Origin: Escherichia coli
GTDB taxonomy: Bacteria > Pseudomonadota > Gammaproteobacteria > Enterobacterales > Enterobacteriaceae
Length of the DNA: 64,000 nucleotides
Strand: one strand, 5' to 3'
NCBI RefSeq assembly: GCF_003019035.1
Contig: NZ_CP027447.1
The notes under the pieces were generated by a model, which made no database searches, was not told the origin of the DNA, and was given only the letters and a program-made list of their open reading frames with translations. The position numbers and the translations under genes were made by a program. Positions 12,411 through 13,123 of this stretch are shown here, in pieces (within the stretch, counting starts at the first letter, position 1; each line of letters opens with the position of its first letter).

Positions 12411-12665
12411 TCAGGAGCGCCGCTCTCGCATAAGTCTTACAATGCGGCGGCCCTGATTATCGAAGTATCTGGACGGCCAGATAATTTCCGGTGCTGTTTC
12501 CAGCACATCCGCAATCAGTTTTTCGCCGCGCGGCCAGGAGCGGGTCAGCGCGTTTGCCAGCGTGGAAGACGCCAGTCCGGCCCTGCGTGAAACCTCAGCC
12601 AGCGACGCTCCCTTTTTTCTCAGACCCGCAATAATATCGGCAGGATGCCAGTCCGGTTGTATCAT
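12411..12665 (-). CDS. Ner-like (Nlp/SfsB family) HTH DNA-binding protein
   Basis: 84 aa; MIQPDWHPADIIAGLRKKGASLAE...STLANAL...IWPSRY matches the Ner/Nlp family signature. Confidence 0.75.
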   Translation of the reverse strand: MIQPDWHPADIIAGLRKKGASLAEVSRRAGLASSTLANALTRSWPRGEKLIADVLETAPEIIWPSRYFDNQGRRIVRLMRERRS

Positions 12666-13123
12666 GATGTCACCCCGCTGTCAGCCTGCACGTCGTCAGC
12701 GGTACGTATCCAGCGCGGAGCGTTCAACTCGTCGGCAAAATACCAGACCAGTTCACACAGTAATCCGGTCAGCGTTTTTTCGGTTTCCGGCAGGAGTGAG
12801 CGCCCGTTCAGAACCTGCGTCAGTGCCAGGCAATAATCGCAGAGTGGTTCTGCATCGGGTGTAAAACCGGATGTGACATCAGGGAACGTGTCTACAGTAA
12901 AACGGTCGATCAGATGCGGTGGGATCGGCTCGTTCAGCGTGGGGCGCAGCAGCGCAAGACAGGTGTTAAGTCTGCCGCAGAGCGCCATTTTCAGTACCGG
13001 GTCGTGGCACTCGATGAGCGTTGTGGCAACGCGATCGCAGTACTCCGCCAGAATGGTGAAATCGGTAGCGGCACTAAAGGGAGCAGCAAGTAAATTGCAT
13101 TCAGAAATGAAGGTAGTTGCCAT
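12662..13123 (-). CDS. Hypothetical Cys-rich protein (153 aa) co-transcribed with Ner-like gene
   Basis: 4-bp overlap with downstream Ner-like ORF; no recognisable family. Confidence 0.5.
   Translation of the reverse strand: MATTFISECNLLAAPFSAATDFTILAEYCDRVATTLIECHDPVLKMALCGRLNTCLALLRPTLNEPIPPHLIDRFTVDTFPDVTSGFTPDAEPLCDYCLALTQVLNGRSLLPETEKTLTGLLCELVWYFADELNAPRWIRTADDVQADSGVTS

Follow-up and report, generated by a model that had tools for sequence, protein, structure and literature searches.

A predicted C4-type antisense RNA switch over an ORF153-Ner gene pair in the backbone of tRNA-inserted islands of Enterobacterales

Two small, overlapping minus-strand genes of the Escherichia coli contig NZ_CP027447.1 (assembly GCF_003019035.1), encoding an uncharacterized protein of 153 residues, here ORF153, and an 84-residue DNA-binding protein of the Ner family, lie downstream of an antisense RNA module of the kind known from the immunity systems of P1 and P4. 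We analyzed a stretch of 64,000 nucleotides that contains this pair, hereafter the window, together with related loci from other genomes. A 1.1-kb portion of the window used as a query is 100% identical to the chromosome of E. coli SCU-301, where the pair is part of an island inserted at a tRNA-Asn gene. What is new here is the combination of a P1/P4-type immunity module that gates a new gene pair with a widespread, undescribed island backbone, and it bears on how islands that carry defense and toxin genes are controlled and moved. The explanation that we favor, with a probability of about 0.6, is that ORF153 and Ner form an RNA-gated early or establishment operon of a P4-derived, tRNA-integrating island backbone. 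An earlier note on this stretch, made from the sequence alone, had seen in the pair a possible regulator of a neighboring PAAR-Rhs toxin gene or of the recombinases of the island, and had missed the main regulatory feature, a C4/IsrK antisense RNA module aimed at the ribosome-binding site of ORF153.

A C4-type RNA complementary to the ORF153 leader

The antisense RNA upstream of ORF153 matches the Rfam C4 model RF01695 at 69.3 bits (cutoff 45, E=2e-11) over model positions 1-87 of 87, close to the 74.9 bits that the CI RNA of P4 itself obtains under the same model. Its tail, a' (AGGCTAA), is complementary to the sequence TTAGCCT both at an upstream site, a1, and at a downstream site, a2, and its loop, b' (CAGTGAG), is complementary to an upstream site, b1, and to the downstream site b2 (CTCACTG). 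The b2 sequence abuts and overlaps the Shine-Dalgarno sequence GGAG, 9 nt ahead of the ORF153 start codon in the window. This arrangement recurs in the relatives: the distance from C4 to the ORF153 ATG is 50-65 nt (mostly 51-55) in 72 of 85 unique units, and in 52 of 68 units, b2 ends 8-12 nt before the ATG and takes in GG(A) from the Shine-Dalgarno sequence.

The complementarity is maintained by covariation. From a locus set comprising 79 loci, drawn from one genome per species, plus others, we extracted the upstream fragments by nhmmer anchoring and aligned 65 sequences. The nine b'-b2 pairs include seven with compensatory changes, and 96.3% of their cells are paired; for a'-a2, five of seven pairs show compensatory changes and 100% of cells are paired, so that the two interactions together have compensatory changes at 12 of 16 pairs. 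Sliding one partner by 1-3 columns reduces pairing to 25-39%, and not one of 500 shuffles attains the levels observed. The mean duplex energy is -32.3 kcal/mol for cognate combinations versus -23.1 kcal/mol for non-cognate ones. Many types of loop and tail exist, each with its own matching leader (loop examples are CAGTGAG and CCAGTAAG), and no two copies in the same genome, which may hold up to five, have both b' and a' in common. The internal helices of C4 co-vary as well. Because the co-varying pairing lies over its leader and Shine-Dalgarno sequence, ORF153 is, as judged from these alignments, the direct target of a P1/P4-type C4 RNA. By analogy with P1 and P4, C4 would be processed from its precursor and would repress translation in vivo.

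Upstream of C4 lies a leader resembling IsrK, at a position where the homologous elements of relatives score 55-75 bits with the isrK model, above its cutoff. Barquist et al. identified IsrK with seqA of P4, and C4 with its CI RNA (PMC3632133). The leader is preceded at a fixed distance by a promoter whose form in the relatives is CTTGCyG-17 nt-GTATCtT; the promoter comparison was anchored on a leader motif held by 56 of 85 units. A generic promoter and terminator scan was uninformative. The conservation profile falls to background upstream of ~13365-13400, so that the promoter marks the left edge of the conserved unit.

Two further observations concern this region. An 89-codon reading frame at 12991..13260 on the minus strand, whose product begins MVGRAGASKDAPVS..., overlaps the C4 RNA gene, and its equivalents are annotated in public genomes as "ash family protein" (PF10554). 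This looks like a C4 RNA gene read as protein, a systematic misannotation that is widespread and that the present analysis corrects. In the minimum-free-energy fold of the leader (13115-13180, minus strand), the ORF153 Shine-Dalgarno sequence also lies within a local hairpin (CUCCAGUG...CACUGGAG), which might act in cis as a second layer of control over translation.

The gene pair and its island backbone

ORF153 is a real gene, as we conclude from its 207 homologs, its ratio of nonsynonymous to synonymous substitutions (dN/dS), its conserved Shine-Dalgarno sequence, and its structural model. The homologs are spread across Enterobacterales (Escherichia, Salmonella, Klebsiella, Enterobacter, Citrobacter, Dickeya, Pectobacterium, and others), and 83 unique intact copies give a dN/dS of ~0.22-0.24, a sequence-based indication that the gene is under purifying selection. 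In the AlphaFold2 model (confidence, pLDDT, of 77), four helices form a bundle and a short hairpin follows at the C terminus; the predicted fold is soluble and acidic and lacks a catalytic motif. The isoelectric point (pI) is 4.3 against a family median of 4.5, and invariance among close relatives is limited to two of the eight cysteines, C29 and C95.

ORF153 itself has no match in Pfam, NCBIfam, or PADLOC, and matches in PHROG only at E>0.01; 24 diverse family members searched against the same libraries gave nothing usable, and a profile search of the PDB gave chance matches only. The family is small: a profile search of 1.84 billion representative sequences returned only 228 matches, and three scans of viral contigs returned one true ORF153 locus, with the gene on a single IMG/VR contig. 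Homology to P4 orf151 or eps was considered and rejected for want of detectable similarity, and neither the sequence nor the fold resembles ArdA, KlcA, or Ocr. ORF153 itself is most likely a protein-binding antagonist of the antirepressor or anti-host-factor kind, an assignment that is made by analogy and is the weakest step of our scheme.

Apparent fusions of ORF153 proved to be read-through into a second C4 unit or the addition of a small C-terminal domain. In two of the long gene calls (P0215 and P0220), an ORF153-like domain is continued by read-through of a second C4 unit and by a small "LPHVRRL...RERREML" domain, and in one P4-like satellite (L094, 5620-6529), a 65-codon reading frame stands between C4 and the ORF153-like gene. 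These arrangements suggest tandem C4-gated modules.

The 84-residue protein matches Pfam HTH_35 (PF13693) at E=5.4e-32 and 110 bits (cutoff 25) over 71 of 75 model positions, PHROG 769 ("transcriptional repressor"), and the structures of phage Mu Ner (1NEQ, E=5.2e-24) and EnrR (7F9H, E=1.3e-19). Orthology to SfsB/Nlp was rejected, its 115.6 bits lying under the NF007670 equivalog cutoff of 150; chromosomal sfsB is a separate locus with ~68% DNA identity. Among relatives with described roles, Acr1 is a Ner-type autorepressor of IncA/C plasmids (PMC4207636), and EnrR of Edwardsiella is an island-encoded nucleoid protein that binds AT-rich DNA and counteracts H-NS silencing of genes for secretion systems of types III and VI, using an N-terminal extension to compete with H-NS (PMC9023278). 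The protein of the window lacks this extension. Mu Ner, SfsB/Nlp, Acr1, EnrR, and the protein described here share the HTH_35 fold and are all small and basic, and the family members carried by mobile elements are repressors or nucleoid-associated regulators. To our knowledge, no other member of the family is under C4 control and coupled to an ORF153-type gene.

The two genes overlap by four bases, ATGA, and this overlap, together with an internal GAGG 9-12 nt upstream of it, is kept in 34 of 37 unique Ner-bearing loci. Judging from sequence, ORF153 and Ner are therefore co-transcribed and translationally coupled, and since the overlap is conserved, blocking the translation of ORF153 should silence Ner too, much as ant depends on icd in P1. 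Much of what the earlier note had read from the window is upheld by these results, namely the helix-turn-helix protein of the Ner/Nlp family, the upstream partner without a recognizable family, the 4-bp overlap and the shared transcript of the two, and the divergent orientation of the pair relative to the PAAR-Rhs gene. The note had left it open whether the 153-codon frame is conserved, and the homologs and dN/dS given above show that it is.

The comparison of loci argues from sequence that the pair belongs to the conserved backbone of tRNA-inserted islands with changing cargo, and not to the Rhs toxin: conservation stops at the operon promoter, the cargo beyond it is interchangeable, and only 3 independent loci of ~85 have an Rhs homolog within 10 kb. 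Past the promoter, another E. coli strain carries DUF8616 and TPR genes, Dickeya carries type I restriction-modification and DarTG, and Klebsiella carries AbiE, TacAT, and DUF4747; the cargo at thrW of sequence type (ST) 131 is type I restriction-modification with AbiE, and that of YDC107 is a reverse transcriptase with AbiE. On the other side of the pair, the order isrK-C4-ORF153-Ner-EFASI-PF12835-(P4-type integrase, opposite strand)-tRNA is found in all eight loci checked with Rfam, with Ner upstream of, and on the same strand as, the EFASI RNA and the PF12835 recombinase gene in each (Table 1). A PF12835 recombinase and/or P4-type integrase lies within 6 kb in 35 of 46 Ner-bearing loci versus almost none of the Ner-less ones, and P4 Int finds tblastn matches in 38 related loci.

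These data bear differently on the two roles that the earlier note had offered. The view of the pair as a regulator tied to the Rhs island does not hold, given where conservation ends and how seldom Rhs is near. A possible role in regulating the recombinases is supported by their association with the pair in order and proximity. Likewise, where the note had asked whether the pair occurs widely outside such neighborhoods, we find it widespread without Rhs, which counts against the Rhs link, but usually still with its recombinase neighbors.

Table 1 Features of the window discussed in the text
Feature	Position	Strand	Details
tRNA-Asn	7813..7885	+	Island integration site
P4-type integrase gene	7948..9312	+	Arm-DNA-bind_3, Phage_int_M, Phage_integrase; adjoins tRNA-Asn; start in the Prokaryotic Genome Annotation Pipeline (PGAP) = window 8050
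PF12835 tyrosine-recombinase-family gene	10628..11512	-	Integrase_1 + Phage_int_SAM_2; Pfam E=1.1e-59, 149/149 positions; start per PGAP
EFASI RNA	11569..11697	-	RF02957, 97.4 bits (cutoff 51.2); lies ~57 nt upstream of where the PF12835 gene begins
Conserved non-coding block between Ner and EFASI	11798..11960	-	From an alignment of 29 loci, consensus fold, and repeat search
Hairpin with 20-bp stem	12325..12370	-	~40 nt past the Ner stop; -59.8 kcal/mol, z=-5.1; no adjacent T-run
Ner-like gene (84 aa)	12411..12665	-	HTH_35 DNA-binding protein, pI 11.1; putatively coupled to ORF153
ORF153 (153 aa)	12662..13123	-	First cistron, predicted C4 target; acidic four-helix bundle (model), small uncharacterized family
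ORF153 translation-initiation leader	13133..13172	-	a2 TTAGCCT 13172-13166; b2 CTCACTG 13142-13136; Shine-Dalgarno GGAG 13136-13133
C4/P4-CI-type antisense RNA	13177..13264	-	Loop b' CAGTGAG 13220-13214; tail a' AGGCTAA 13206-13200
IsrK-like leader (P4 seqA equivalent)	13284..13348	-	a1 13323-13317; b1 13307-13298; T-run
Sigma-70-type operon promoter	13355..13383	-	-35 TTGCTG (13383-13378), 17-nt spacer, -10 TATTGT (13360-13355); read from sequence
PAAR-Rhs gene	13643..17422	+	Variable cargo outside the conserved module; marks its boundary

The cassette occurs in three contexts. Type A loci, ~40 of 83 unique loci, hold the full backbone. Type B loci, about half of the 83, hold a solo unit that begins with the promoter and ends at the ORF153 stop codon; copies of it within one genome are ~70-73% identical over exactly this ~680-bp stretch. 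Such units occupy small islets, together with a single cargo gene or a few, or lie beside integrase fragments. In type C, distant ORF153 homologs (25-40% identity) lie in the early operon of P4-like satellites, between AlpA (plus C4 in one case) and a Toprim/DUF927 primase, and one further homolog adjoins ogr in the accessory region of a P2-like prophage. Among 5,426 complete E. coli genomes, 1,110 carry the cassette, 363 the PF12835 and EFASI module, and 227 the island-type Ner. The excess of solo cassettes may reflect preferential retention or use by other elements. We downgraded "selective retention" as proof of function because ORF153 had served as the query that retrieved the loci, an ascertainment effect that the E. 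coli counts, made with PF12835 and Ner probes, partly offset.

About one in five complete E. coli genomes, including ST131, and many other Enterobacterales thus carry the cassette, usually beside defense, toxin, or virulence cargo. The islands concerned resemble the "integrase-only" defense islands of Hochhauser et al. 2023 (PMC10121019), which are tRNA-linked and have at least one integrase-family gene, varying defense cargo, and no known mobilization genes; the ST131 thrW island and others in our set fit this description as given in the parts of that study on which we draw. In those same parts, the mobility of such islands is called unclear, their regulation is unexplained, and no backbone is given beyond the integrases, whereas the islands described here share an RNA-gated operon, EFASI, and a recombinase gene of the MpsA type.

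Between Ner and EFASI, the conserved block is at least 90% identical among the 29 aligned loci over 11960-11895. It holds two exact direct repeats, CCTGCACCAGAC, at 11909-11898 and 11854-11843 (55 bp apart), followed by a hairpin with a conserved 10-12-bp stem (11840-11798). EFASI is present in the eight type A loci checked and also in two further loci (L002 and L006). Weinberg et al. found EFASI and STAXI RNAs near integrases, and STAXI occasionally near c4; the two RNAs associate with ssb, antirestriction, and XerDC-type integrase genes. No STAXI lies between Ner and EFASI in the window or in eight relatives. The PF12835 gene carries the "INT_DTR_like" signature that is linked to MpsA, an atypical relaxase of the tyrosine-recombinase type from Salmonella genomic island 1 (SGI1) (PMC10484663). 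In SGI1, a GC-rich origin of transfer (oriT) with inverted repeats is followed by the essential sgm-sRNA and then by mpsA (PMC6414798, PMC9299015), an order with which the present repeat and hairpin block, structured RNA, and PF12835 gene are analogous in position. By this analogy, the block may be an oriT or may regulate the PF12835 module, and it could also be where the PF12835 protein or Ner binds; EFASI may be the analog of sgm-sRNA; and the type A islands would be mobilizable. The two modules differ in that neither mpsB nor a site for a helper activator (AcaCD) turned up here.

In several loci, the distance from Ner to PF12835 is longer (~1.8-2.0 kb). One of them (L027, 11167-11839) has, as judged from the translations, a RelE/HigB-like toxin gene and an HTH antitoxin-like gene between the two, adding ~0.8 kb, and such a two-gene insert probably explains the longer spacing. 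A search for attR, as a copy of the 3' end of tRNA-Asn, turned up only four full tRNA genes in the window; the three besides that of the island are identical to it, lie within 33018-37319, and are alternative targets for the same type of integrase.

Proposed mechanism and competing explanations

In the operon that we propose, a constitutive promoter would give rise to a transcript that carries the IsrK/seqA-like leader, the C4/CI-type RNA, ORF153, and Ner, from which C4 would be processed, as at P1 immI and in P4 immunity. The tail and loop of C4 would pair with a2 and b2, and with b2 covering its Shine-Dalgarno sequence, ORF153 would go untranslated; Ner, whose start codon lies within ORF153, would be silenced together with it. 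The pair would be made only when C4 is absent or titrated, for instance during the first minutes that follow entry into a naive cell or while C4 is being sponged by a competing element. Ner, which is basic and Cro-like, would then, by analogy with Mu Ner, Acr1, and EnrR, act as a switch at the DNA level, as a repressor or a regulator of the nucleoid type, its likely targets being its own promoter and/or the repeat block, EFASI, and the MpsA-type recombinase module. ORF153 would be a protein-binding antagonist that stands in the place of Icd/Ant in P1, epsilon in P4, and Orf45/AnrP in Gifsy-1.

A close precedent is the immI locus of P1 and P7 (c4-icd-ant1/2), which likewise has a constitutive promoter, upstream a1 and b1 sites, a C4 RNA made from the same transcript as its target, a2 and b2 sites over the ribosome-binding site of the first cistron, and a coupled second gene; both RNAs belong to RF01695. 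Here, however, the first cistron encodes a 153-residue acidic helical protein that is unrelated to the 73-residue Icd, the libraries searched containing no Icd-like or Ant model that fits ORF153, and the coupled gene encodes a Ner-type DNA binder instead of an antirepressor, on a chromosomal island instead of a phage or plasmid.

The immunity region of P4 reads PLE-seqA-CI RNA/seqB-seqC-eps-orf151-cnr-alpha. The order IsrK (seqA) to C4 (CI) is found in P4 with the same models, directly before eps, and further likenesses are the P4-type integrase at a tRNA gene, the distant ORF153 homologs in the same early operon of P4-like satellites, and an immunity specificity that is set by short complementary sequences and comes in heteroimmune variants. 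In the islands described here, by contrast, the RNA is followed by ORF153 and Ner and then by EFASI and the PF12835 recombinase gene. With 12 P4 proteins as tblastn queries, the sole match in the window is to Int; the type A and type B loci give no match to alpha, eps, cnr, orf151, sid, delta, or psu, and vis (orf88) matches only in one Ner-less locus (L055) and in two others (L095 and L096). Given the lack of other P4 core genes and the single IMG/VR contig, these islands are not P4-like satellites in the accepted sense.

The isrK-orf45-anrP-isrJ locus of Gifsy-1 is similar in that an IsrK-type leader controls the first cistron, a downstream regulator is coupled to it, and derepression is harmful. 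As described in the portion of Hershko-Shalev et al. 2016 considered here (PMC4825925), it differs in that a short IsrK RNA activates translation, whereas the pairing in our islands is that of a repressing C4, and the proteins are unrelated.

Several observations weigh against the establishment operon. The window itself scores slightly under the Rfam cutoffs for the leader, with 47.8 bits for isrK (RF01394, cutoff 50) and 42.7 bits for c4-a1b1 (cutoff 46.7). No operator for Ner could be identified in our analysis. The stable hairpin that follows Ner could be a stabilizer of the RNA 3' end or a pause site, and it may uncouple the operon from EFASI and PF12835. The antagonist role of ORF153 is argued from position, charge, and analogy, the matches to its fold are generic four-helix bundles, and similarity to Icd, Ant, P4 epsilon, or P4 orf151 is undetectable. 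About half of the units lack Ner, PF12835, and an integrase, and an establishment role does not explain these unless they are remnants or have a second function.

An extension of the scheme accommodates a second function. Type A islands would be previously unrecognized, tRNA-integrating mobilizable islands that combine a P4-type RNA switch with an SGI1-type mobilization module, in which the block is the oriT, EFASI the required small RNA, and the PF12835 protein the relaxase; ORF153, as a new family, would be a C4-gated effector that serves establishment in intact islands and acts as an autonomous exclusion or abortive module in solo heteroimmune cassettes. We regard this fuller version as tentative and on balance doubtful. 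Were it true, it would account for at least some of the "integrase-only" defense islands of Enterobacterales, and it suggests functions for the orphan RNA motif EFASI and for the repeat block. In any event, a P4/P1-type antisense switch with many co-varying specificities and an unstudied target protein offers a testable handle on island silence, establishment, and mutual exclusion.

The main competing explanation takes C4-ORF153 as an autonomous, RNA-gated addiction or abortive-infection effector. C4 would serve as the RNA antitoxin of a toxic or growth-arresting ORF153, with Ner optional, and the effector would be released when an invading P4- or P1-type element titrates C4 or when C4 is lost after transcription is shut off. 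Such an effector would suit the solo units, which lack Ner and recombinases and all of which were selected for an intact ORF, the presence of up to five heteroimmune copies in a genome, and the excess of cassettes over PF12835 modules and island Ner genes in E. coli. Solo cassettes also adjoin restriction-modification, AbiE, reverse-transcriptase, NACHT, and toxin-antitoxin genes. Icd, which occupies the same position in P1, inhibits cell division. In addition, transposon-directed insertion-site sequencing (TraDIS) of Salmonella Typhi found the IsrK-like elements of P4-like prophages to be required (PMC3632133), a finding that also speaks for the establishment operon, as a sign that derepression is toxic. 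Against the effector, ORF153 has neither a toxin-like domain nor a PADLOC match, and its model, an acidic bundle predicted to be soluble, shows no catalytic motif; ascertainment accounts for part of the apparent retention; defense genes nearby are expected of any island cargo; and dN/dS between old copies mostly reflects their history inside mobile elements. We consider this explanation unlikely, if still deserving of attention.

An explanation that we find similarly improbable makes ORF153 a helper-manipulating protein, a derepressor like P4 epsilon, or an acidic establishment protein of the anti-restriction kind produced soon after transfer, encoded by an unrecognized satellite or mobilizable island in which Ner would be a mere autoregulator. 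It draws on the distant homologs that stand where epsilon does in P4-like satellites equipped with AlpA and a Toprim/DUF927 primase, on the homolog beside ogr, and on the use of C4-type RNAs to gate antirepressors in P1, P4, and Gifsy-1. The low pI of ORF153, the association of STAXI and EFASI with ssb, antirestriction, XerDC-type integrase, and occasionally c4 genes, and the membership of the neighboring PF12835 gene in the MpsA atypical-relaxase family point the same way. Yet ORF153 is unlike epsilon, ArdA, KlcA, and Ocr in both sequence and fold, the islands lack sid, delta, psu, alpha, and eps, the gene occurs on one viral contig of IMG/VR, no helper is known, and such a function would be of no benefit to solo cassettes in immobile contexts.

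Local regulation of the divergent PAAR-Rhs toxin locus, the view of the earlier note, fares worse and strikes us as very unlikely. The divergent orientation fits it, as do the AT-rich region of 260 bp between the operon promoter and the Rhs start, the effect of EnrR on H-NS-silenced secretion genes, and a second Rhs-linked case in Trabulsiella. Set against this, homology stops at the promoter of the operon itself, other strains and genera have unrelated cargo on this backbone, Rhs is near in so few loci, the Ner of the window is without the extension of EnrR, and C4 is predicted to keep Ner silent for most of the time. That ORF153 and Ner are a type II toxin-antitoxin pair in which the HTH protein is the antitoxin, as two small overlapping genes on a mobile element, one of them for an HTH DNA binder, might suggest, is hardly credible given that ORF153 stays intact without Ner in about half of the loci, that Ner is frameshifted or truncated in strains that retain ORF153, and that no toxin-antitoxin or defense model of PADLOC or Pfam matches.

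Further observations on related loci and on the window

The genome of Enterobacteriaceae bacterium 89 holds five C4-ORF153 cassettes (L012, L014, L019, L020, and L022) that share ~70-73% identity, and no two of them agree in loop and tail specificity or in core-gene neighborhood; one lies between tar and cheW, and one adjoins the gene of a 1907-residue NACHT protein. At L014, a 69-bp copy of the 3' end of an ORF145 gene recurs ~600 bp downstream (10349-10417 and 11004-11072), with 84% identity to the gene end at L012, and may be the footprint of insertion into a gene end. In Mixta tenebrionis (L021), an sRNA-Xcc1 motif (9572-9656) lies directly upstream of the cassette promoter.

On the Rhs side of the window, the spacer between the operon promoter and the PAAR-Rhs start (13400-13640, ~260 bp) is very AT-rich and resembles a typical H-NS target; it is the only place where Ner could plausibly exert an EnrR-like effect on Rhs. 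Downstream of the Rhs gene, the plus strand encodes two small proteins of 129 and 100 residues (17389-18084), which are candidate immunity proteins, and a giant protein of 2,685 residues with immunoglobulin-like domains (18950-27007). Other structured RNAs of the window are DicF (2225-2276, plus strand, 76.7 bits), a cobalamin riboswitch (41541-41715, minus strand), and STnc230 (42782-42865, plus strand).

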